IMG/VR virus record: IMGVR_UViG_3300046131_000022
Location: 9,146 to 73,145 of that record
Source: a virus
Lineage: Duplodnaviria; Caudoviricetes
Direction: 5' to 3' (one strand)
Length of the DNA: 64,000 bases
How positions within the stretch are numbered: position 1 is the first letter of the stretch; each line of letters begins with the position of its first letter. Of this stretch, positions 22,728-57,972 are shown piece by piece. Below the pieces are notes generated by a model, which saw only the letters and a list, made by a program, of their open reading frames with translations, did not search any database and was not told the DNA's origin. The translations under genes were made by a program, and so were the position numbers.

Positions 22728-22761
22728 TGATAAGATACCTCACAAACAGTGAGGTATTTTT
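22728..22761 (+). promoter_or_regulatory. Extended -10 overlapping an RBS-occluding hairpin
   Basis: TGaTAAGAT 22728-36; stem ATACCTCAC/GTGAGGTAT 22735-57 holds GAGG; TTTT then ATG. Confidence 0.6.
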
Positions 22762-25700
22762 ATGTCTGAACAACAAGTAGAAATTTTCGCAAGAAAATTA
22801 AAGGATTTAAACGTACCAATGGATATTGGTGCTGACCCAAACGCTTTTTCACAAGTGAAAATAGCAACAGGAAATATGCCAGAAGGGTTTTCAACTTTTG
22901 AAGGTTTATATTTAATTCACATTATTCAAATTCTATCTAAAATTTCAGATAAGTATTTCGAACCAATGCAGCAAGAAGAATTTGAATTACGATTAGCTGA
23001 ATTAATGGCAGATTTTCAAGCTAAAGCTGACGATATTGTGGCTCAAGGTTTCTATAAAACTTATGCAAAAGAGGTTGATCTTTTAGCACAAAAACCAACG
23101 GTTGAAAATTTATATGCCAAAGCTATAGATACAGCAAAGGTTTGGTTCTGGCAAAGAACAAGTGCTGCAGAAGTTACGCCAGTAACAGGTACTTGGACTG
23201 ACACTGGTTTATCCGAATTGGACCAAGCAAAAATCTATGCTGATCAAGGCATCAAAGAATATGTGACTTATCAAAATTATATTGGTCCAGTTCAAGTTCT
23301 GAGAAATGGTACAATTTGGGAATTACCTGCAGGTCAAACCGCGAATGGCACAGAACCTGAAGCACCAGGTGTAGATGCACGTTGGATCAATAAACTTGTA
23401 CCTCGACTTTATAAAAATTTAGATGAGACGTTCAATACTTATGCGACTTTAGATAGTGTGAATCAGTTTGATATTAATCGTGTGTACTCTCGACTACTTG
23501 ATGACTCAATTAAAAAAATCTCATTAGTAGGCAAAGACGTTGATAAATATACTTTTGCTCATTTACGACAGTTTTATTTGAAAAAGACAAGCACGGGTGT
23601 CACTGTAAATATCATTATTGCTTTGACAAACAATACATCTGACTCAGATACAGCAAATGACATTGAATTTAAGTTATACGGGAATCCTGAACATGTACCT
23701 GATTCATCTGGTCACATCAAAGTTTACAGTAATTCATCTATTCAACAGCTTGAATTAGTACTTGATGTCTCTAAATATCAAGCAGATATTCAGTATGGTT
23801 TTGTGCAAGGCTCTAAGAAAAACGGTTTAATGAATATTTCTGCTTTTAACTATGTTGAGCAAAAATATTGTTATGCAAATATCACTGATGAAGTATCTCC
23901 GCAACGTGGAAACCCTTTTGCTTTAGCTCGTTCACTGCAAAATGTGACGATTCTGGGTGATTTCACAAATAAAAAATTACAGTTCACTCGACTTGAAAAA
24001 ACAGCAAGTGCAGTAATTTTAGATTTAACAGTCAATGATTATGTGCTGAATACAAATGTCGTCCTACGAAAATCGTACACTCATGCAGAATTTACAGGTC
24101 TTTTAAATGTAAGTGCATGGGCGGTAAGCGGAGCGAATAGTACACGATTAAACTATGGCGTAGCTGCAACAATAGATGCAGCATACTTAAATCAGCATTT
24201 TAAAAATCGTGCGACATGGAAAATACTTCCGATCGTTGCAACACAACCAATTTCTAACATTTCGTATGTGACTGAAATCCGCTTGCTTGATCAGTACGAT
24301 TTTCCGAGCGGCGGTTACTGTGACTATCGCGGTTTTTATTCAGAGACGGCAGGCTACAGACGCATGAGCGCAGGTGTGAAAATCCCAGAAGGTGCTGTAT
24401 CAATCAAAGCGACAGGTGGTTTTGATAAAAATGCAAACATACTTTTTGGCGACTCGACAGGGCGCCTAATTCAGTACGGTTATGCTTGGAAAGATGCTGA
24501 TGGGTTAACGAAGTATAGCGGTGATGAAATCAAAACTTCACTAGAAGTTGCGATTCCTGCGGGCGCACACTATCTTCATATGGCTACGCTTTCTGCAAAC
24601 TTAGCAACAACAACATTGAATGTCATTGGTGATTTCAAGTACACGAAAAAGACTGATTTCAAAAGCATTCAGGAGGTCTTGGTTGATAAAACCAAACCCG
24701 ATGGACTATATACAGCTCAAAAGTACATGTTCCGCAAAAACGGTAATTTAATCAACAATGTGCAAGTCATTGATGGTACAGATTTAGCAAAAGCCGACAC
24801 ATACTCTGCAAGCGCATTAATTAAAGGTAGCGGTTTTGGTCAATTGGTGTTTTATAAAAATGGTAAATACTACTTTTATAACGGCAGCACACGTGAAATC
24901 TACATCGAAGAAAACGGCGTAAAAACTGTTTTAACAAACCCATCTATGCATCCTGTCGCTTGGGAATTTGGTATTAATCAAGGTCAAGGTCGAACAGTGC
25001 TTGAAGTGCTAGATGATGATTCAATTCTGTTTTGTATGCTTGAAAGCATTGTTGGTGATCAGCGTTATTCGCTTTGGAAAATGAAAGTCGGTCAAGTCCC
25101 AAAACGTTGCTTTATTTATTCACATGATACTTACACTGATACAACTTCTGCTGTGAAATTTGCAAATGGCTGTCCGCTGGGCGAGTGGTCTTTTAGCTAT
25201 GCACGTGGGTTAATTTTTGCGACAGAATACGGGGCAGGGACGTCAAAATGGTGGTACGAGTACGGTGAAAGCGGTGGTAATGGTCGTGGTGTATCTTCAA
25301 AAATGTGGGTGTCGAAAGACCAAGGTGAAACTTGGTATTTGTGCTTAAATTTGAATGAGTTGAAAGACGCAGCGCAGGGCGAAGCTGATACAAACTGGAA
25401 GTATTTCGATAGCACATACAACAAGAATATGAGTCATATTCATTGTGTTAAGTATGATAGTTATGCTGATCGTATCTATGTCACGAATGGCGATAGTGTT
25501 GGAATGCTTATTTCATTGTCAGTTGATGAAATTAAGAACTGGTTGACTACTGCAACACCTGTTGTTGCTGATGCAGTGCTAAATCCAAATATTGCAACAG
25601 GTTTGAATTGGAACGCAGTGAAGCTCAATAGCTGGCAATGGCATTCAAACATTAACTATCACTGTATGCGCCAGCAACACACCGCACTTTATCCGATCGA

Positions 25701-26211: not shown

Positions 26212-26248
26212 TGTTATTATTCCCCTGAACAATCAGGGGAATAATTTT
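26212..26248 (+). promoter_or_regulatory. Extended -10 overlapping an RBS-occluding hairpin
   Basis: TGtTATTAT 26212-20; 13-bp stem 26216-28/26233-45 holds AGGGGA; TTT then ATG. Confidence 0.6.
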
Positions 26249-26686
26249 ATGAAGTTTTTAGAAAAAATAAAAACTTTTAAATATACTTTTATTGGTTTTA
26301 TCATCACTTATCTAAGTATAGTGTTGTTTTCACACACAGCTTTTGCTCAAACAAGTACACAATCAACTGAATTTGTTTTGTTTTATAAAAATGAGTTTAC
26401 ATTTTTATTGTGCGTAATAACTCTAATATTAGGATCATGGTTGGGTGTTAAATTACCAACCATAAGTGGGGAACAAGAACTAGATAAAAGTATAAAGTTT
26501 GTAACAGCTCTATTAGGTGGAGTTTTAGCGTTTATTTATTGTTTACAAAAAGATAAAGCTTTAACCCTAATGAACCCATTTTGGATCGCAGTGGCTAGTG
26601 TTACGCTACCACTAACAATCTTAACTTTACGTGATAAAGTTTTAGCGTATGCTAAAAGTATAAAGTTCACAAAAAATGGTGAATAA
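26249..26686 (+). CDS. Putative holin or antiholin (multi-TM)
   Basis: About 4 hydrophobic segments, basic C-terminus, upstream of endolysin. Confidence 0.55.
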   Translation: MKFLEKIKTFKYTFIGFIITYLSIVLFSHTAFAQTSTQSTEFVLFYKNEFTFLLCVITLILGSWLGVKLPTISGEQELDKSIKFVTALLGGVLAFIYCLQKDKALTLMNPFWIAVASVTLPLTILTLRDKVLAYAKSIKFTKNGE

Positions 26687-26980: not shown

Positions 26981-27018
26981 TGCTAAGATAATCCTCAACA
27001 TTGTTGAGGATTATTTTT
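26981..27018 (+). promoter_or_regulatory. Extended -10 overlapping an RBS-occluding hairpin
   Basis: TGcTAAGAT 26981-89; 12-bp stem 26988-99/27003-14 holds GAGGA; TTTT then ATG. Confidence 0.6.
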
Positions 27019-27759
27019 ATGTCTAAAAAAACACGTATTGACTTCCAAAAATGGTTAATAGCTAAAGGTTGTTTTATAGGTAACTCTGGAGCAGACGGAA
27101 CCATTGGTAAAGAAACTAAACAAGCTACATACAATATTTTTTTTGAATTGAAAGCAAAAGCAATCACAAACCAAGAATTGGAAAAAATTGCACAAACCAT
27201 CGGTGACACAACAGGAACAGCTCGTATTCGTGCTGTTGCAGAAGTGGAGTCAAACGGTGGCGGTTGGTTAAATTCAGGACATGTAAAAATATTGTATGAA
27301 CGTCACAAGTTTTGGAAATACAATGATGATAGTTCAGCCCCAAAATCTACTTTCTTTAATTACCCAGAAGGGGGGAATTACACTATAGATGCCAACAACA
27401 ACGATATAAACGATTCATGGGAAAAGTTATTAAGAGCCTGTGAATATGATCCTATGGGTGCATTTATGTCCGTTTCTATGGGTAAATTTCAAGTAATGGG
27501 TTTCCATTATAAGGATATGGGTTTTGAAACACCTTGGGACATGATGTTTTCTCTAGTTTCTAATGAGTTTAATCACTACCAATTATTGGCTAAATTTATT
27601 CAAAATAACAATTTAAAAAATGCTTTCTTGAAAATAAATGCAGACTCAGAAAATTGTCGGGCTTTCGCTAAAGGTTATAATGGTAGCGGTTATACCAGAA
27701 ATCATTATCATATTAAAATCGCCTTGGCATTTTTAAAATTTAAAAAGGCAGGTTACTAA
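27019..27759 (+). CDS. Endolysin, N-acetylmuramidase (DUF3380-like) with N-terminal peptidoglycan-binding segment
   Basis: FQKWL..G....ADG.IG.ET; AVAEVES, ILYERHKF, SMGKFQVMGFHY, FAKGYNG; ATG 27019 has the GAGGA RBS. Confidence 0.88.
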   Translation: MSKKTRIDFQKWLIAKGCFIGNSGADGTIGKETKQATYNIFFELKAKAITNQELEKIAQTIGDTTGTARIRAVAEVESNGGGWLNSGHVKILYERHKFWKYNDDSSAPKSTFFNYPEGGNYTIDANNNDINDSWEKLLRACEYDPMGAFMSVSMGKFQVMGFHYKDMGFETPWDMMFSLVSNEFNHYQLLAKFIQNNNLKNAFLKINADSENCRAFAKGYNGSGYTRNHYHIKIALAFLKFKKAGY

Positions 27760-49081: not shown

Positions 49082-49934
49082 CCAAAACTAATTCTATTTT
49101 AGAAATTATACCTGTATTACCCTCCACCTTGGAAATACCTATAGGTTCTTTAAAACGAACAGGAATAATTTCCCCCAAATAATCAAAATCAAATTTTTTA
49201 CTTAGTCTATGTTTTAAGTAGAACAATTCCAATAAAGCCATATTCTGCTCTGGACAATGGCTTATAACTATTTTATCTTTAGAATCAAAGACATATTTCA
49301 AACCACTACAAGTTAATTTGAATGTTCGTATGTCCCTACCTATTTTTTTAAATGATAAAGTATAGTTATTTCCCAAAGGGATTAGATTTGAGCTGTCAGG
49401 ATAATCAATTTCAACGTCAAAATATTCCAATGGGAAAGGCAAATCCCCATCCAGATTTTCACCTTTTTGAAAAGTAAAATCAGTAGTAACCACTTCTTGA
49501 AGTTCCAAGGTGAACCCTTCAACGATTCCTTTCCCTCCCTGTTTTTTCAAAGGCAAGGTCAAGGCTTTTGCAAATCTAACAACTAAATCACCATAAATAG
49601 GGTGTTCGTAAATAAAAGGTTTGTGACTTTTATGTTTTAAATAAAATTTCTGCAGTTCCCTAAAATCAAGCTCTGGTCTATAAGCTAAACCAGTGTATTT
49701 TGCATAATCTGTTTCCTGTAACATCAACATGGGAAATTCCAAGCTGAATAATCTGACAGGTTTTATAGTTTTGTAAGGTACATAGGTTTGAGTTCCTTCT
49801 AAACCTACGGAAGCATGAACAAATGGTTCAATATATTTAGTACCAAAGTTGTGATAGTTCCATATAAAACGATCCATAGAAGGGTCTGTAATGACCCTTC
49901 TTGTGAAACGTTGAGTGTAGTCGAAAGCACTCAT
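49026..49934 (-). CDS. Distal tail protein (tandem M-like domains)
   Basis: Directly after tape measure; two similar halves (F.L.F/C..L...L..FY..H...K.F....G...VRF). Confidence 0.65.
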   Translation of the reverse strand: MSAFDYTQRFTRRVITDPSMDRFIWNYHNFGTKYIEPFVHASVGLEGTQTYVPYKTIKPVRLFSLEFPMLMLQETDYAKYTGLAYRPELDFRELQKFYLKHKSHKPFIYEHPIYGDLVVRFAKALTLPLKKQGGKGIVEGFTLELQEVVTTDFTFQKGENLDGDLPFPLEYFDVEIDYPDSSNLIPLGNNYTLSFKKIGRDIRTFKLTCSGLKYVFDSKDKIVISHCPEQNMALLELFYLKHRLSKKFDFDYLGEIIPVRFKEPIGISKVEGNTGIISKIELVLVETPYKTHEDETVYEPKA

Positions 49935-52900
49935 TCAGCATTCACCTGTTTAATTAATTGTTTGAGTTCACCATTTCTAGCAATATTATCAGAAACAGCA
50001 ACAACAATGTCGTTTGCCCCAATAGTGCTTGGAACTGCCGACGGTGCAACCATATAAATGTTACTTTGAACTGATTTGTTAATTTGAGGTCTATTCCCTA
50101 AATTAGTTCCTTTGATTGCATCCATTACACCATTAGGGTCGTCTTTCAATTTATTCAAGAAACTTCTACCCACAACCTCAGTAGATTTAGTTGGTAAATA
50201 ATATTCACCAGGCATGGACATAATAGGTACAGAGTCTTTGTTTGGAATACCTCCAATAACTTCACCACCTTCTGCCATAGGAATAAACCCTCCTTGGTTA
50301 TTTATTACAGACTGAGAAGTTATTCCTGAATCATTCCAACCTGCACCAAGTCCTTGTGTAGTTGCACCAGAACTTTGAACCCCTGCAGCTTGAGCACCAC
50401 CTGAACCTAAACCACCGTACCATCCTGTGAAAGCTCCAACACCTGCTTGAACAAGAGCAGACAAACCAACGTTCCACCACTGGGAACCATTGTTGGCTGA
50501 CGAAGCGTTCTGTCCCATCATTTGACCACTTAAAGCAGCACTACTTGAAGTTGGTGCACCTCCAAATATAAACCCAACCATCATATCAACAAATTTATTC
50601 ACCATTCTATTTTGAACAACTTTAGCAATGGTTGAGATAATGTCGTAACCAAAAGCTTTGAAGGCTTCACGAGATTCACTTGAACCGCCTGTGATAATTT
50701 TAAAGAAGTCATCCACATTATCACTGGCTGAAATCGCTGTGTTGATTAGGTTATTGAATGCTGAGTTAATTCCGCCAATTGTTGTTTGAATATCCCGTTC
50801 ATATCCTGCAGCCGACTTATCCATTCTCACAGCTTCACCACTGATACTTTTAAAGGTATCTGCCATGTTATAGCGATCAGCCGTATTGTCTGCAGCTTTA
50901 GCACTTAACTCATTATCAAGGTTTCTAGCTGTTTCCTGAAGTTTTAACAAATCAGTTTTGTGCTTCTGAATATCTCGACTCACTTTATCCATTTCTTTTT
51001 GTTGAGCTGTTTTCATCATTGAAAGTTCATCAGCAGAAAGATTTGAATCTAAATTTAAATTTTGTTGAAGTTCAAATTCTTTAAATTTAATTTCTGATTC
51101 AGAAATTTTATCTTGAATTTTTTGAATTTGCTGTAGGGTAATATCTCTCTCAGCCATGATATAGTTTTGATTAACTTCATCCACTCGGCTGCTTTGAGTT
51201 TGAATAGCTAAATCTAAATCTTTACGCTCAGCATCCGTAAACTGATTTTTAAATCTAGGATCGTCCATAGCTGTTCTGCGATTTCGCATATCCGTAATGC
51301 CTAACTCATCTTCAATTTTCCAAGTTGACTGTTGTTTATTGAAGGCATTAATTGTTAAAGCATCTTGGAAAGGCTCATCCAAAGCTTGCATTTCAGACTT
51401 AAAATCATCAACGAATTGTTTATTTTGATCTTTAACCATATCTGCGAAAGCTTTGGCAGACTCCTTCAATCTAGCTTTTCTCTTTGTATCTAAATCCTTG
51501 TTTATGCTTGACAACTCTCTGTCTAAACGAATTTGAGCTACAGCAGCAATGGATTTTGAAATAACAAAATCTGTAGAGTTAGCCCCATAATCGGCAGCTT
51601 GGAGTTGTTCCATTTCCACCTTTATTCTTGCTTGGTCTTGTTTAAGTTGTTTTGATTTAGCACTAAGTTCATCTTGTTTTTTATTAAAAGCTTTTAAATT
51701 CCCATCGGTTTGTGGGTCAAACTTATCTTTTAATTGTGCGTCAACTTCAACAATTTGGTTTTGAAGTAACTCACTCTGTAGGGTCAATCTTTCTAGGCTT
51801 TCTTTACGAACCTGATCTTGTTCCGCACGAGCAGACCTTAATGTATTGTTGACAGAAGCACTTACATCAGCCATTTTTTTTGAAATTGCTTTTTCATGTG
51901 CGATTAATTCTTTATATTTCTCCTTTTGATCATCAGTCATTTTATTTACGTCTTTAGGAAGCTGATTCAATTGAGCCACAACCTCATCATGATAAGACTT
52001 CAAAATTTGGCTTTGTGTCACATTTTCAGCAACCTGCTCTGGTAATTTATTTTGTTGAAGAACAACATTACCGAAGCTACCTTTCTGTATAGCATTAACT
52101 GTAGAAAAGATTCCTTTTGTGTAAGAATTAGCTTCACCAGATCTTTTGTTTGAACCATTTTTTTGTTCTTTTTGCCAATTACCTAGTCCCATATAGTATG
52201 CTCTTGAAGCACTGTATAAAGTACCATCGGTTGAATCCATCATTTTTTTTAAATATTTAGCACCTGCTAAAATATTATCTTTGTAACTACTTGATATTGT
52301 TGAGTAATTTGAACCAACATCTAGTGCTGCCCCTCTAGTGACCTGCATTAAACCTACTGCACTTGTGGTTGAGCCGTCGGGGTTTTTTCCTAATAAGCCT
52401 TTATCCTTACTTATTCCTGATTCTTGAGCCATGTGTGCAATAATATATTCAGGCGGTAAACCTGTTTGTGCTGCAGCTTCATTCACAAAACCCATTAGGT
52501 CTTCACGTAAAAAACGTAAATTTTCAGAGCTTACAGCTTTAGCTTTTGTTGGATCAACAACAGATAAAGCTTTACCCCATTTAACCTTATATTGTTGTTG
52601 TAAAGAACCATCTAATAATTGTTGGTTTAAAGTGTTTTCATAACCTTGTGATCTCGCTTGATTATCCGTACTTTCCGCTTGAAGCAATGGTCCAGAGATT
52701 GAGTTTAGATATGTTTGAATATCTTGAACAGTTTTAGCCAAGTTGGTTACGCTGTCTGCAGAAACCCTAGCGTTCGCTCTGGCATCTAAAGCAACTTTTG
52801 TATTGTTGGCTGCTTTTAAATAACCGTCACGAGCTTTATTCAAATTAGTCAACAATAGGTTGGCTGTTTTAAGCCACTCTGGGGCTTTACGCATAACCTC

Positions 52901-55900
52901 ATCAGAAGCTTGTGGGGTCATTAAATCAGCGTGTAAATTTTCCAACATTTTATTCATGTCGGTTCCAGACGCACCACCTTTGTTAAATTTAGCTACTTCA
53001 TTAAAAACATCTAAACTTGTTGCTTGATTGTTGAAAGCACCCATTAAAGTAAAAAACTCTGTAGCAGCATCCCCACTGGGGTTTTGTGGGGCTAAACCAC
53101 TTTGTTTTTTTAAATTATAAGCATCATAAATTAAACCATAACCGCCTTTGTTTGCCCCACTGATAGAGGTTGGTAAATTTTTTCGTGCTTCTTCAGCCCT
53201 CATTTGAGCTGTTAAAGCTGATAAATTTCTTAGTTCAGAAACTTGGCGATCCAGATTCATTTCTAACTCTTTACCAAGTTCTACTCTAAGTTCTTGCCAA
53301 CCTTTTTTAACAGAGTCGATGCTTCCTGTTAGGTCTGTTTCGAGGGTTACGCCAAGTTCCATTGCTTTCGTTCTGAGATTACTCATTTCAACGGCTAACG
53401 CTGCTGGATCATCTTTGATATTTTCAAAACGAGATTCTAAAGAAGTTAACTTGTTGGTTACTTCGGTAATTGCTCCCTGCAAACTTGTTGACCCATCTTT
53501 TAAATTATTTAAAGAGGTTTTACTGTCTTCAACAGCTATTTTTAAATCTTGATTAGATTTTTTAAATAATTGGAATCCTAAAATAGCTGCAGAAATAACA
53601 ACTGATAGACCCATAATAATTGGGTTCGTTAAAGCTATGGCTGCTGAACCTGCTCGTATGGCTGTTACTAAACCTGCAATAGCCCCAACCATACCTCTGA
53701 CAAGTATAGTTGCTCCCCCTAATGCAACACCCATTGTTGTTGTTTGAATAGTGAACCGAACAACACCATTGTTTGTTGCGTCAACTAAAATGGTTGTAAC
53801 ATCACCTACAACATTGAATAAGTCAGTTAGTGATTGTCTAACACCACCCCCTGCTACTTCTGCCAGAGCTTTAAATTGGTTAAACATTCGGTCAGTTTGA
53901 GCACCTAACGAGTTCATTTGAATCTCATTGGCTTCCATAGCTGCAGTGTTATTGTCCAAGTTAGCTGATAAGTTATCGTAGGTATCTAAATTATTTGCCA
54001 AGGCGGTGTAGAAAGCCACTGATCGAACTTCAAAGGATTCATAAGCGTCTGCGGTGCTAAATCCAGCTTCTTTTAATTTTTTAAGCGATCCAACTAAACC
54101 ATTTGTTCTAACATCAATATCAGCCGTGGTTAAACCTAAACGAGATAGAATTTTTTCAAATTTAGCCGACGGTGCAATTAAATCAGTTAATAATTGTCTA
54201 AAGCCAGTACCTAATGTTGAACCTGAACGGACACCTGCGTTTGCCACTGTTGACACAGAAGCCAATAATTCTTCAAAATTTAAACCTGCGTCTGAAGCTG
54301 CGTTACCTGCATATTGAACAGCTAATTGGAATTTTTGAATATCCAATTTAGATAAGTTCATTGCTTGTGTAATTTGGTTCACAATTCTCGGCATATTGTC
54401 TGCAGATAATTGGAATGCCCCCAAAGAAGCTGTCGCAATATCTACAGTTTCTTTTAAAGAAGATCCTGTCGCTGTAGCCAATAAGGTTACTGATTCCAAG
54501 GTCTTCTGAATTTCAGCTAAAGAGAAACCTGCCTGAGCTAAAGTGGTTGCTGCTTCAGTAATTTCAATCGCTGTAAATCTTGAGTTTTCACCCACCTCTA
54601 AAATAGAATTTTTCAAACCTTGCATTTGAGTATCTGTGGCTTGAGAAATGGCTTGGGTTTGTTTTAAAGCAACCTCAAAATCACGCAAAAAAGCATAACT
54701 TCCAGTGATGGAACCCATGAATGCGCCCCACAACATGTAGTTACGCATTAACAAACCCTGCATACCTAATAATGCACCACTTGATTCACCAGTGTTCATT
54801 TGATTTAAGCGATCAACGAAACTATTTGGTCTGTTTGCTCTATTTAATTCGTTATTTCTTGCTCGAATTAAATCAAGTTCTTTTTGGTATGCTACGGCTA
54901 ATGCTTCGGCTTCTTTTTTCGCCTTAGCATTTCCTAAAGATTCTGCTTGGAACATTACTTCTTTAGCTTGGGACAATCTCTTTGTCATCGTCATTTGTCG
55001 AGCAATCAAATTGTCGGGGCTAAGCTGAGCAATTCGTTCCGCACTTAACGTATTTACTTTTAAACCACCTTGGGTTAAGTCGTTTAAACGCTGATTTGTT
55101 CTTGTTAAATCATTGCTTTGTTTTAATTTTTGAATTTGATCATCTGTAGCCCTTACATTTGCCCTTCTCAAATTTTGAATAGCCTGAAGTCTTACTTTTT
55201 CTTCTTCAAGTTTAGATAATAGTTGGCTGTATTGGTTCAACTGCTGTGTGATTTGGGGGTTTTTAGTTGGGTCTTGTAAATATAATTGACCCATTAGGCG
55301 TTGTGCTGCTGATATTTTAGAAGCATTTGCTTCTAAATCTTTACGAACTTGATCCGTTCCCACTTTGTTTGATAAATAATCTCGATTAGCAGGTACTAAT
55401 CTGGAAGGGTCAGACATGTATCGCTGTACTGCAGATTCTCTTGCACCAGAGTAGAATTGGCTTTGTTGTCTGGCATCAATGGTTCTTTGCATTGCAGCTT
55501 GACCTGCAGGGAGGTTAAGCATGTTTTGAATAGACGCATTTTGTTCTCGTCTAATAAATTCAAAACCTTTAAATTCTATATTCAGTTGTCTTAAAGTGTT
55601 TTTATATTGTACTAAAGCTTTTTCAGCATTCTTAATTTTTTGAATGTCACCGTTGATATTTGCTAAATCAAGGCGTGTTTTAAGGGCTTGTCGTACAATA
55701 GAAGCATCGTATTGTTGCAGAACTGTATTCATAGTTCTTGCATCTTGAAACTTCATTGGTGAATTTACTAATGAATTAATTTGGCTTGCTTGTTGAGCTT
55801 TACTAATGTTTTGATAGAACCTTTGAGCCAACATGTCGGGTGTTGTCATCATTAGTTCTGTTTGTTGTTTTAAATTTTTAAGTGTTTTATTAGTGGGTAT

Positions 55901-56077
55901 ACCTTTACTATTGCTACCCTCTAAAGACTTGATATTTTTATCAATTATGGCTAACTGATCACCCACAGCTTTTGCTGTGTCTCTCAAAGAAATCATTCTT
56001 TGTGTGAGTTGATCAACAGTCCCCAAGGCGTTGCCTTGGAGATTTAAGCCTACATTTATTGGTGTGTTGTTAGCCAT
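49931..56077 (-). CDS. Tape measure protein with lytic transglycosylase domain
   Basis: 2048 aa helical; TP901-type core (FTAIEITEAATTLAQAGFS...SGSTLGTGFR); SLT motifs AQESG, AVGLMQV, AGAKYL, AYYMG. Confidence 0.92.
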   Translation of the reverse strand: MANNTPINVGLNLQGNALGTVDQLTQRMISLRDTAKAVGDQLAIIDKNIKSLEGSNSKGIPTNKTLKNLKQQTELMMTTPDMLAQRFYQNISKAQQASQINSLVNSPMKFQDARTMNTVLQQYDASIVRQALKTRLDLANINGDIQKIKNAEKALVQYKNTLRQLNIEFKGFEFIRREQNASIQNMLNLPAGQAAMQRTIDARQQSQFYSGARESAVQRYMSDPSRLVPANRDYLSNKVGTDQVRKDLEANASKISAAQRLMGQLYLQDPTKNPQITQQLNQYSQLLSKLEEEKVRLQAIQNLRRANVRATDDQIQKLKQSNDLTRTNQRLNDLTQGGLKVNTLSAERIAQLSPDNLIARQMTMTKRLSQAKEVMFQAESLGNAKAKKEAEALAVAYQKELDLIRARNNELNRANRPNSFVDRLNQMNTGESSGALLGMQGLLMRNYMLWGAFMGSITGSYAFLRDFEVALKQTQAISQATDTQMQGLKNSILEVGENSRFTAIEITEAATTLAQAGFSLAEIQKTLESVTLLATATGSSLKETVDIATASLGAFQLSADNMPRIVNQITQAMNLSKLDIQKFQLAVQYAGNAASDAGLNFEELLASVSTVANAGVRSGSTLGTGFRQLLTDLIAPSAKFEKILSRLGLTTADIDVRTNGLVGSLKKLKEAGFSTADAYESFEVRSVAFYTALANNLDTYDNLSANLDNNTAAMEANEIQMNSLGAQTDRMFNQFKALAEVAGGGVRQSLTDLFNVVGDVTTILVDATNNGVVRFTIQTTTMGVALGGATILVRGMVGAIAGLVTAIRAGSAAIALTNPIIMGLSVVISAAILGFQLFKKSNQDLKIAVEDSKTSLNNLKDGSTSLQGAITEVTNKLTSLESRFENIKDDPAALAVEMSNLRTKAMELGVTLETDLTGSIDSVKKGWQELRVELGKELEMNLDRQVSELRNLSALTAQMRAEEARKNLPTSISGANKGGYGLIYDAYNLKKQSGLAPQNPSGDAATEFFTLMGAFNNQATSLDVFNEVAKFNKGGASGTDMNKMLENLHADLMTPQASDEVMRKAPEWLKTANLLLTNLNKARDGYLKAANNTKVALDARANARVSADSVTNLAKTVQDIQTYLNSISGPLLQAESTDNQARSQGYENTLNQQLLDGSLQQQYKVKWGKALSVVDPTKAKAVSSENLRFLREDLMGFVNEAAAQTGLPPEYIIAHMAQESGISKDKGLLGKNPDGSTTSAVGLMQVTRGAALDVGSNYSTISSSYKDNILAGAKYLKKMMDSTDGTLYSASRAYYMGLGNWQKEQKNGSNKRSGEANSYTKGIFSTVNAIQKGSFGNVVLQQNKLPEQVAENVTQSQILKSYHDEVVAQLNQLPKDVNKMTDDQKEKYKELIAHEKAISKKMADVSASVNNTLRSARAEQDQVRKESLERLTLQSELLQNQIVEVDAQLKDKFDPQTDGNLKAFNKKQDELSAKSKQLKQDQARIKVEMEQLQAADYGANSTDFVISKSIAAVAQIRLDRELSSINKDLDTKRKARLKESAKAFADMVKDQNKQFVDDFKSEMQALDEPFQDALTINAFNKQQSTWKIEDELGITDMRNRRTAMDDPRFKNQFTDAERKDLDLAIQTQSSRVDEVNQNYIMAERDITLQQIQKIQDKISESEIKFKEFELQQNLNLDSNLSADELSMMKTAQQKEMDKVSRDIQKHKTDLLKLQETARNLDNELSAKAADNTADRYNMADTFKSISGEAVRMDKSAAGYERDIQTTIGGINSAFNNLINTAISASDNVDDFFKIITGGSSESREAFKAFGYDIISTIAKVVQNRMVNKFVDMMVGFIFGGAPTSSSAALSGQMMGQNASSANNGSQWWNVGLSALVQAGVGAFTGWYGGLGSGGAQAAGVQSSGATTQGLGAGWNDSGITSQSVINNQGGFIPMAEGGEVIGGIPNKDSVPIMSMPGEYYLPTKSTEVVGRSFLNKLKDDPNGVMDAIKGTNLGNRPQINKSVQSNIYMVAPSAVPSTIGANDIVVAVSDNIARNGELKQLIKQVNAE

Positions 56078-56483
56078 TCTGTTTGTTCCTTTTAAACCAA
56101 GCTGAAACTTGATTTACATCGTTTAATACAGGTAAGTTTTTAAAATTTTCACTTATTGTATCATCCGACTTGGAACTTGTACCTAATAAGTTTTTAGCCA
56201 ACAGAACTAAAATTTCTTGTCCTTGAATGAATGTCACATGTTTTTCTTGGATATAGAGTTTCATTTTAACTTCTATATCCTCAATGGTGACTGTCCACAA
56301 GAAAGAATTTAGATCTGAAAAATTTATTTGGTATATTAAACAGATTACTTCGTGGAAGTTGAGTTCTGCAAACCACTCAACGTATTGCTTAATTCTGTCG
56401 CCTTGGGTATCGCTTGCTGCAGTGCTGTCGCTATCTGTTCGGCTTCTTTCAACATAAAATTTAATGTTCTTTGACGCACCCAA
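56070..56483 (-). CDS. Tail assembly chaperone T portion (likely -1 frameshift product)
   Basis: In the -1 frame of upstream chaperone, overlaps it by 139 nt, no own RBS evident; precedes TMP. Confidence 0.65.
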   Translation of the reverse strand: MGASKNIKFYVERSRTDSDSTAASDTQGDRIKQYVEWFAELNFHEVICLIYQINFSDLNSFLWTVTIEDIEVKMKLYIQEKHVTFIQGQEILVLLAKNLLGTSSKSDDTISENFKNLPVLNDVNQVSAWFKRNKQNG

Positions 56484-56752
56484 CCGACGATTTCTTCCAT
56501 TTCGTCGTCTAGCAAATCGTCTTCTTCAAATTTATCTAAAACCTCAATTAAGGGTTTGCCTGAGATTTCTTTACCATAAAGTAAAAAACCTACTGCTGTA
56601 ATTTTAAAAGCTTCTGAAGAAATATATTGTTGAATGTCTTCATTATTAATGTTTAAAAATAAACGATAACGCATGGCTGCAGAAAACTTTAATTCTCTTA
56701 ATTGACCACCAACTTTAAAACTTTTTACACCTGAGTCAATTGGTTCAGACAT
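56345..56752 (-). CDS. Tail assembly chaperone G
   Basis: Upstream of TMP; in-frame A-AAT-TTT slippery heptamer at 56462-56456. Confidence 0.7.
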   Translation of the reverse strand: MSEPIDSGVKSFKVGGQLRELKFSAAMRYRLFLNINNEDIQQYISSEAFKITAVGFLLYGKEISGKPLIEVLDKFEEDDLLDDEMEEIVGWVRQRTLNFMLKEAEQIATALQQAIPKATELSNTLSGLQNSTSTK

Positions 56753-56759
56753 ATTAGAA

Positions 56760-56804
56760 CTCCAAAATAAATAAAACCCACGCTTGGGTGGGTTTTATTA
56801 TACA
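56760..56804 (-). repeat. 45-bp direct repeat, copy 1 (-10 + terminator + RBS)
   Basis: Minus strand TGTATAATAAAACCCACCCAAGCGTGGGTTTTATTTATTTTGGAG; identical to 57125-57169. Confidence 0.95.
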
Positions 56805-56811
56805 CAAATTT

Positions 56812-57117
56812 TTAGAAATTGGTTGGTTGAGCCACTGCACGAACCAAATACATTAGAGCTGTTTGGAAATCTGTTTTTGCCAAAGCTGTAAAACGTTCAG
56901 GTGTAGCATCTTCAAGACGATCAAAGGTTGCTTGATCCGTAATTTCTTGGAATTGTTCATTTATGCAACAATTATCACGTTGTTCTTTTACGTGTTTTTG
57001 AACCTTAATAATTACTTCTTCAATTTTAGGACCAAGTTCTTTAATTTCATTCATCAATGCAATTTCTTCCGCATTGAGTTCACGATAACCTGTAATTTTA
57101 CGATGTTGGTTTTCCAT
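56812..57117 (-). CDS. acb2: Anti-CBASS protein Acb2 (cyclic-oligonucleotide sponge)
   Basis: MENQHRKITGYRELNAEEIALMNEIKELG...RFTALAKTDFQTALMYLVRAVAQP closely matches the Acb2 pattern incl. Y11 and K26; GGAG 7 nt before ATG 57117. Confidence 0.88.
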   Translation of the reverse strand: MENQHRKITGYRELNAEEIALMNEIKELGPKIEEVIIKVQKHVKEQRDNCCINEQFQEITDQATFDRLEDATPERFTALAKTDFQTALMYLVRAVAQPTNF

Positions 57118-57124
57118 TTTCACG

Positions 57125-57169
57125 CTCCAAAATAAATAAAACCCACGCTTGGGTGGGTTTTATTATACA
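57125..57169 (-). repeat. 45-bp direct repeat, copy 2
   Basis: Identical to 56760-56804. Confidence 0.95.
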
Positions 57170-57174
57170 TACTT

Positions 57175-57972
57175 TTAGGTGATCATGAACAACTTTGATT
57201 TTTCATGTTCAACATACAAATCATAACCTGCATCTTTACGTGTTAATGCCATTGCTGTCGCTTGGAACTGCATGTTGGCATAGTCAGCAACACCAAAAGT
57301 TAAGTTAAGTCCAGAGGTAATTTGGATCTTTGGAGCTACCAAGATAATCGGGTTACAATGTACATCGGCAGAAACTACTTTAGCTGAAAAATAGTTTGCA
57401 CCTGAACAGCTATCAGCATCGTTTGTATTAATTAAAGTTGATTTTACAACTTTATCACCAACCGCTACTGCAGCAACCAGTGGGCGATCCAAAGTAATAA
57501 CTTTTTCTGCGATTGATTTAATTTTGTAAGCCAAACCGTCTGAATTGCCATTGATTGGGGAGATAACAATCCAATCATCTTGAACCAAGCCTGTAGCTAC
57601 ATCGACTGTAATCGTTTCTTCACTGACCGAGGTTGGTGCAGTAATTGTTGCCTTAATACGTGGAGCCGTTGGGTCTGCTGTGTAACCTGCTTGACCTAAA
57701 GCATACATAATAGTTCGTGGGTTATATTCGTAACCATTACCTGCAAGCTGCCAGTCGTCGTTTGTTAATTGTTGGTGAACAATTTCTTGGCGTGGACCTT
57801 GCGTTAGTGGTTGAAATGTTTTTGCGTTTGTTACGGCTAAGTTTTTAAATAAACCTAAGCTATGTTCTTCTTCTGTTAAGTCCATTGCTGAACCTAAAGG
57901 TCCGATCATTAATGTAGCTTCGTTTAGTACAAAACCGTCGCCTAAAGCTGCACCAAAGTTTTGAGCTGTCAT
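57175..57972 (-). CDS. Major tail protein
   Basis: 265 aa, biased codons, position before chaperones and TMP; GAGGA RBS. Confidence 0.72.
   Translation of the reverse strand: MTAQNFGAALGDGFVLNEATLMIGPLGSAMDLTEEEHSLGLFKNLAVTNAKTFQPLTQGPRQEIVHQQLTNDDWQLAGNGYEYNPRTIMYALGQAGYTADPTAPRIKATITAPTSVSEETITVDVATGLVQDDWIVISPINGNSDGLAYKIKSIAEKVITLDRPLVAAVAVGDKVVKSTLINTNDADSCSGANYFSAKVVSADVHCNPIILVAPKIQITSGLNLTFGVADYANMQFQATAMALTRKDAGYDLYVEHEKSKLFMIT

Follow-up and report, generated by a model that had tools for sequence, protein, structure and literature searches.

A predicted Acb2-family gene between two copies of a terminator and ribosome-binding signal in the tail operon of an Acinetobacter-type phage

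Between the tail tube gene and the tape-measure chaperone gene of an Acinetobacter-type phage lies a 101-aa gene, here called acb2, bracketed by two identical 45-nt repeats. This arrangement raises the question of what the gene encodes, how it came to stand between two tail genes, and how it is expressed from that position. The window, meaning the whole 64-kb stretch of DNA analysed, belongs to a 73,145-base IMG/VR virus record, a metagenome assembly with an estimated completeness of 89%. The host phage is Acinetobacter-type and "virulent-type", with a genome of roughly 75 kb. Its closest named relatives, at ~68% identity, are the A. baumannii siphophages EAb13, Mystique, TCUP2199, fJoAci01, and fJoAci04 (77-82 kb), and IMG/VR contributes four further relatives, ranked by tube identity as L007 and L008 (80%), L093 (69%), and L094 (46%). 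Seven relatives were read directly (L007, L008, L093, L094, EAb13, Mystique, and TCUP2199), and fJoAci01 and fJoAci04 were compared by alignment only.

In the open-reading-frame list, the tube gene, acb2, the chaperone gene, a second-frame ORF, and the tape measure gene follow one another in that order, all on the minus strand. The features of the locus are as follows.

57175..57972, minus strand: 265-aa ORF for the tail tube (major tail) protein, the upstream neighbour of acb2
57125..57169, minus strand: repeat copy A, 45 nt exact (52 nt at 94%, extending to 57176), with TGTATAAT, a hairpin at 57164-57135, a T-rich run, and GGAG at 57128-57125 as the putative ribosome-binding site (RBS) of acb2
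56812..57117, minus strand: acb2, 101 aa plus stop codon at 56814-56812, with its ATG at 57117, assigned by Pfam, PDB, fold, and residue matches
56760..56804, minus strand: repeat copy B, 45 nt exact (similarity extending to 56811), with a hairpin at 56799-56770 and GGAG at 56763-56760 as the putative RBS of the chaperone gene
56345..56752, minus strand: tape-measure chaperone gene, 135 aa, an ORF matching PHROG 37198 and the downstream neighbour of acb2
56070-56483, minus strand: second-frame ORF overlapping the chaperone gene
49931-56077, minus strand: tape measure ORF, 2048 aa

The identity of the two neighbours establishes the setting. The AlphaFold model of the 265-aa protein matches PDB 9N71, the tail tube of the A. 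baumannii phage Mystique (E 2e-36, 68% identity), and the protein also matches PHROG 28493, with no Pfam match. The 135-aa protein matches PHROG 37198, annotated as 'tail length tape measure protein chaperone' (E 9.5e-5); its gene has the usual overlapping second frame, and the tape measure gene lies next downstream. EAb13 has the same gene order, with the gene downstream annotated as tape measure.

The 101-aa gene is assigned to the Acb2 family on the strength of sequence and predicted structure. The protein matches the Pfam profile PF24729 (Acb2_Tad1_hairpin) over profile positions 1-58 of 58 at 49.7 bits (E 4e-13), against a curated cut-off of 27 bits, and a six-frame search of the genome with the same profile also recovers the acb2 of the window, which is present as one copy in the genome. 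With phmmer, query residues 1-101 align to residues 1-93 of the PaMx33 Acb2 chain (PDB 8H2J, E 6.8e-20), and 8IXZ is matched as well. The AlphaFold monomer model of the protein has a mean pLDDT of 91, and in a Foldseek search with that model the six best PDB matches are Acb2 chains of 8H2X and 8H2J (TM 0.75-0.87), followed by T4 Vs.4. Profile, full-length sequence, and fold matches thus bear out the identification as Acb2 made in an earlier note on this DNA.

Residues contacting the ligands in PaMx33 Acb2 provide a finer comparison. In that protein Y11 and K26 form the cyclic-dinucleotide pocket, and R67 and T74, with A70 and I71, form a separate cyclic-trinucleotide pocket (PMC10312549). Pairwise alignment places Y11 and K26 of the window protein in register with those of PaMx33 Acb2, as had been noticed earlier, and aligns PaMx33 R67, T74, A70, and I71 to R75, T82, A78, and L79. 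Equivalents of R67 and T74 are not retained in every Acb2 family member; across 30 homologues, Y11, K26, and R75 never vary and T82 almost never does. The additional CC-containing insert that had been described is real: the window protein is 8 residues longer than PaMx33 Acb2, the extra residues include a Cys-Cys pair, and the insert forms the loop joining the two long helices, a region hypervariable among family members in both length and sequence. Only the closest homologues share the CC pair.

With both pockets intact, the protein is predicted by homology to be a sponge for CBASS signals. We infer from the Acb2 family that it would assemble as a hexamer sequestering CBASS cyclic dinucleotides in the Y11/K26 pockets, that cyclic trinucleotides would be held in the R75/T82 pockets, and that sequestration of the signals would keep the CBASS effector of the host inactive. 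Some family members instead bind 3'cADPR, the Thoeris signal (PMC12393519).

The repeats that flank the gene are exact, as reported earlier. Within the 64-kb window the 45-nt sequence has two occurrences, 56760-56804 and 57125-57169, which have 0 mismatches to each other and a start-to-start spacing of 365; no third copy of the 45-mer occurs in the window at up to 3 mismatches, and the chance expectation for a 45-nt repeat is 0 matches (100 shuffles). Similarity between the copies reaches 52 nt at 94% identity. On the coding strand a copy reads TGTATAAT-AAAACCCAC-CCAAGC-GTGGGTTTT-ATTTATTTT-GGAG, and the earlier description of TATAAT, a 12-bp stem, and GGAG in each repeat is accurate as to sequence. 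Each copy contains a 12-pair terminator-like hairpin (AATAAAACCCAC / GTGGGTTTTATT) with a 6-nt loop, followed by a T-rich run. Folding prediction gives this hairpin as the dominant structure (about -16 kcal/mol; z-scores -2.4 and -3.0 for the two copies). The GGAG stands 7 nt upstream of an ATG in both cases, that of acb2 for copy A and that of the chaperone gene for copy B; an alternative GTG start for acb2 lies 6 nt upstream of its ATG, just 1 nt from GGAG. Downstream of acb2, the 12-pair hairpin and T-rich run begin 15 nt after the stop codon and resemble a terminator.

The TATAAT had also been taken as a promoter belonging to acb2, a weak reading that is not adopted here. The hexamer has no -35 partner, a promoter scan makes no call at either repeat, and the last three bases of TATAAT sit within the terminator stem. 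A TG directly abuts the hexamer, which is not the TGnTATAAT register of an extended -10. The hexamer is CATAAT or TAGAAT in relatives, and most of its conservation can be ascribed to the terminator stem, since its A-tract lies opposite the U-tract. Other -10/hairpin sites of the window are laid out differently. At 22728-22762, 26212-26249, and 26981-27019, three plus-strand genes are preceded by TGnTA..AT, then a hairpin, then TTTT-ATG; the Shine-Dalgarno sequence lies inside the hairpin at those three sites, a layout unlike that of the 45-nt repeats, and they neither confirm nor exclude a promoter at the repeats.

Comparison with the relatives is central to the history of the locus. In 7/7 relatives read directly, the interval from the tube gene to the chaperone gene is 45-65 nt and holds exactly one terminator/RBS element, and fJoAci01 and fJoAci04 are consistent, by alignment only, with the same adjacency; the supposition that these two genes are normally neighbours is upheld. 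The element is built alike in the seven relatives: after a -10-like hexamer comes a 12-pair hairpin, A-rich in its 5' arm and U-rich in its 3' arm, and then a T-run and the Shine-Dalgarno sequence. In L008 the hairpin and the first 36 nt of the element are identical to those of the window, and in EAb13-type phages and L094 the stem sequences differ with pairing kept. Because different stems still pair, a sign of compensatory change, the element is conserved as structure and not as sequence. As a separate observation, the terminator after the tube gene is conserved as structure group-wide, down to 46% tube identity, even where the stem sequence is entirely different (window 56770-56799; L001:1886-1945; L094:3311-3355).

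The gene itself is missing from the relatives searched. A six-frame search with PF24729 detects no Acb2 anywhere in seven relative genomes (CheckV completeness 91-100% for four of them), and the same search finds the gene in the genome of the window and in three positive controls (L009, L010, and L013). Relatives without acb2 carry one copy of the element, which agrees with the proposal that the repeat is a duplicated native signal; two copies in such relatives, named in the earlier note as counting against it, are not seen. The companion suggestion, that the same slot might hold other inhibitors in relatives, is not supported, as no other inhibitor occurs in the tube-chaperone slot and the slot is empty in every relative found. 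ENA/Logan contigs of 17,533, 6,801, and 5,811 nt encode tube and chaperone proteins that share at least 90% identity with those of the window, and none of these three sizes is that of the longest contig of any Acb2 cluster, among seven clusters read and 120 listed representatives; this hints, as a lead only, at near-identical phages without acb2 on those contigs. In the same collection, Acb2 homologues at 79-80% identity (P0008, P0142, P0143, P0156, and P0158) lie on many contigs of 74-75 kb, a size like that of the genomes of this group.

The nearest homologues of the window protein are 79-88% identical, 101 aa long, and share the same loop. The closest one found with its gene context is in L096, a prophage of Acinetobacter sp. 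CFCC 10889; it is a 99% match to P0121, a member of the 90%-identity cluster whose representative, P0002, shares 88% identity with the window protein. There acb2 has an Acb4-family gene on one side and HNH/terminase genes on the other, and terminator-like hairpins flank it. Within L096:3427-4306, the Acb4-family gene (PF13876, E 1e-33) is ~200 nt from acb2, with terminator-like hairpins near each; PF13876 is the Acb4 family (PMC11722364). In the IMG/VR sequences L009 and L010, the latter classed as a provirus, the Acb2 is 81-82% identical and is encoded between portal and scaffold genes with its own downstream terminator. In both (L009:2465-3306, L010:1925-3306), acb2 immediately follows a Tad2-like gene (PF11195, E 5e-18 and 2e-24), giving a two-sponge island in the head module; the Tad2-like protein of L010 has an N-terminal extension of ~250 aa that is missing in L009. 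In L013 (2960-3360), the hairpins on the two sides of a 66% Acb2 homologue agree in stem and tail (GCACC/GGTGC-TTTTTTATTG) and differ in loop; they may represent a terminator duplication like that of the window that is older and has diverged.

Terminator-like hairpins on both sides are found at 15/142 Acb2 loci vs 9/1157 control genes in the same loci, an enrichment to be taken as indicative, since the loci are not independent of one another. Among 80 IMG/VR Acb2 loci, flanking direct repeats are confined to short ones (14-16 nt exact, 4/80), and a 45-nt exact duplication is found at 0/80. The exact Acb2 protein of the window is recorded on three contigs, their three sources being JGI/IMG, Logan, and ENA. 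The source of the gene is most likely a temperate Acinetobacter phage carrying the 'CC' subclade, in which acb2 sits as a terminator-bounded unit beside other sponge genes. No donor can be named, because no GenBank phage has an Acb2 above 60% identity.

Since the relatives have a single element, adjacent genes, and no Acb2, these features together argue for horizontal gain accompanied by duplication of the signal. It is highly probable that acb2 is a single-gene moron acquired in this lineage, with the native terminator/RBS duplicated and the gene expressed late by read-through. We infer that acb2 landed in the intergenic signal between the tube and chaperone genes, with junctions on opposite sides of the signal, an event that would have doubled the native 45-nt terminator and Shine-Dalgarno sequence. 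Copy A would now end the tube gene and give acb2 its RBS, and copy B would end acb2 and give the chaperone gene its RBS. The leader of acb2 after GGAG (GTGAAA-ATG) resembles the leader in L096, which places the left junction at the RBS; the right junction falls within 7 nt of the acb2 stop codon. The 9-nt ATTTTGGAG is common to the element and to the upstream flank in L009/L010; it may be a microhomology used at the left junction but could also be a matter of chance, and no weight is placed on it. The two copies match at 45/45 positions, including those at which the window phage departs from L007, L008, and L093, a pattern that suggests either a recent event or homogenisation between the copies. 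Base composition was dropped as a sign of foreign origin, because the GC of the insert is like that of the flanks (0.33-0.35 vs 0.31-0.39) and offers no contrast.

The full reading of the earlier note was that the locus is a self-promoted accordion cassette, in which each repeat would act as promoter, terminator, and RBS, acb2 would be strongly expressed late, and recombination would tune its copy number (0/1/n). We regard this as unlikely, though several points speak for it. T4 amplifies the locus of the counter-defence gene tifA (dmd-tifA) through microhomologies of 6-10 bp (PMC9391042), against which the direct repeats here are long enough, and by analogy recombination between them is mechanistically plausible. 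A clean deletion of 365 bp between the repeats would, by the coordinates, recreate the architecture of the relatives, as had been stated. Selection on acb2 could also run both ways, because Panoptes defence is triggered by Acb2 (PMC12657218). A perfect TATAAT stands in each copy, a -10-like hexamer (TATAAT, CATAAT, TAGAAT) precedes the hairpin in all relatives, and the three plus-strand sites are further cases in the window of a -10 box overlapping a hairpin. Against a promoter, however, stand the missing -35, the silent scan, the TG lying outside the extended -10 register, and the different layout of the other sites, with Shine-Dalgarno inside the hairpin; moreover, the last three bases of the hexamer pair in the terminator stem in every relative, and TATAAT is common at ~35% GC genome-wide. 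Copy number offers no help to the cassette reading either, as the genome has a single acb2, and searches for 0- and n-copy variants in IMG/VR (hairpin-core pattern with one N) and in JGI metagenomes (exact 34-nt) found none, both matching just two 80% relatives. It is unlikely that acb2 is a reversible, dosage-tunable module for which 0/1/n polymorphism within the population is the normal state; if it were, acb2 would be lost cleanly on hosts that make Acb2 a burden, such as those with Panoptes, and kept or amplified on CBASS hosts. The same doubt attaches to a second possibility, that duplication of the recipient terminator is a general signature of sponge entry into late operons.

Two other accounts concern the direction of change and the reality of the sequence. 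If acb2 and two repeats were ancestral, and the relatives had lost the gene by recombination between the repeats, the deletion would give exactly their single-element architecture; such deletions are scarless, so gain and repeated loss are indistinguishable from architecture alone. Ancestry of this kind is nevertheless very improbable. It calls for at least 3-4 independent losses vs one gain, the gene being missing in every relative across 46-80% tube identity; old repeats should have diverged, yet the copies are 45/45 identical while the element differs from that of the 80% relatives; and the phages with the nearest acb2 homologues are temperate and unrelated to this group. An assembly artefact, with acb2 linked into the contig by way of the common 45-mer or present in only a minority of the population, deserves mention for a metagenome contig of 73,145 bases at 89% estimated completeness, and repeats of this length can loop assembly graphs. 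Each of the two junctions, however, calls for real DNA that joins acb2 to the element, the resemblance of the acb2 leader to that of L096 puts the junction at the RBS as a real insertion predicts, and the exact protein recurs on contigs from JGI/IMG, Logan, and ENA, so that an artefact is scarcely credible.

Under horizontal gain with signal duplication, acb2 would be transcribed late, within the tail operon, through read-through of the tube-gene terminator. Late timing is what the position alone would reasonably lead one to expect, and this part of the earlier expectation of late, high expression stands. The expectation of high expression does not, because acb2 lies behind a terminator and would be reached by read-through, like the chaperone gene. 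The insertion may also carry a cost, as the chaperone gene, the tape measure gene, and later genes would now lie behind two terminators in series.

The Acb2 family and this mode of gene insertion are already known, and the locus is one clear illustration of them; it adds a case and not a principle, because the family, its mechanism, and moron acquisition are already established. It is a well-resolved natural case of the gain of a counter-defence gene by a virulent-type Acinetobacter phage: the site can be seen both empty and filled, together with the donor-type context, and the recipient terminator/RBS has been left duplicated over 45 nt. For phage biology and the genomics of phage therapy, it shows that possession of a CBASS sponge can vary among EAb13/Mystique-type phages, a difference that could affect host range on A. 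baumannii carrying CBASS or Panoptes.

Among known systems, the Acb2 of PaMx33/PaP2 (gp26; PDB 8H2J, 8H2X, 8IXZ) is similar in sequence (44.6% identity by tblastn, E 7e-20) and in its helical-hairpin fold, which is predicted to be the same for the window protein. The equivalents of Y11, K26, R67, T74, and A70 are kept, whereas I71 is replaced by L and the window protein has 8 additional loop residues including Cys-Cys. The setting differs too: in PaP2, acb2 ends a DNA polymerase/primase gene block, while the acb2 of the window lies inside the late tail operon. T4 Vs.4 (PDB 7UQ2) shares the fold of the window model with a Foldseek probability of 1.00 and TM of about 0.56-0.63, but its sequence match to the window protein is weak (E 0.56). 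Vs.4 does not bind cA3 (PMC10312549), and in contrast to it the window protein keeps both cA3-pocket residues.

The closest organisational parallels are accordions and morons. The T4 dmd-tifA (PMC9391042) and SegB-driven T6 (PMC13096335) accordions likewise have a counter-defence gene flanked by direct repeats; amplification was observed there experimentally, whereas the window is known from a one-copy state and its variation is hypothetical. The temperate Acinetobacter Acb2 genes of L096, L009/L010, and L013 lie before terminase, by an Acb4-family gene, or between portal and scaffold genes, by a Tad2-like gene, rather than in a tail operon, and their flanking hairpins are unrelated to the element of the window; their products are nonetheless 66-88% identical and of the same length, with a CC/C loop, and terminator-like hairpins adjoin their genes as well.

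A moron, in the sense of Hendrix and Juhala, is an additional gene that brings its own expression signals and separates two genes found side by side in relatives. The window acb2 departs from this description in having neither a convincing promoter of its own nor a compositional difference from its flanks, and its bracketing signals are an exact duplicate of the recipient's terminator/RBS instead of imported ones. It agrees with it in being a single extra gene whose neighbours adjoin each other in all relatives examined, and in having a terminator-like hairpin just downstream.
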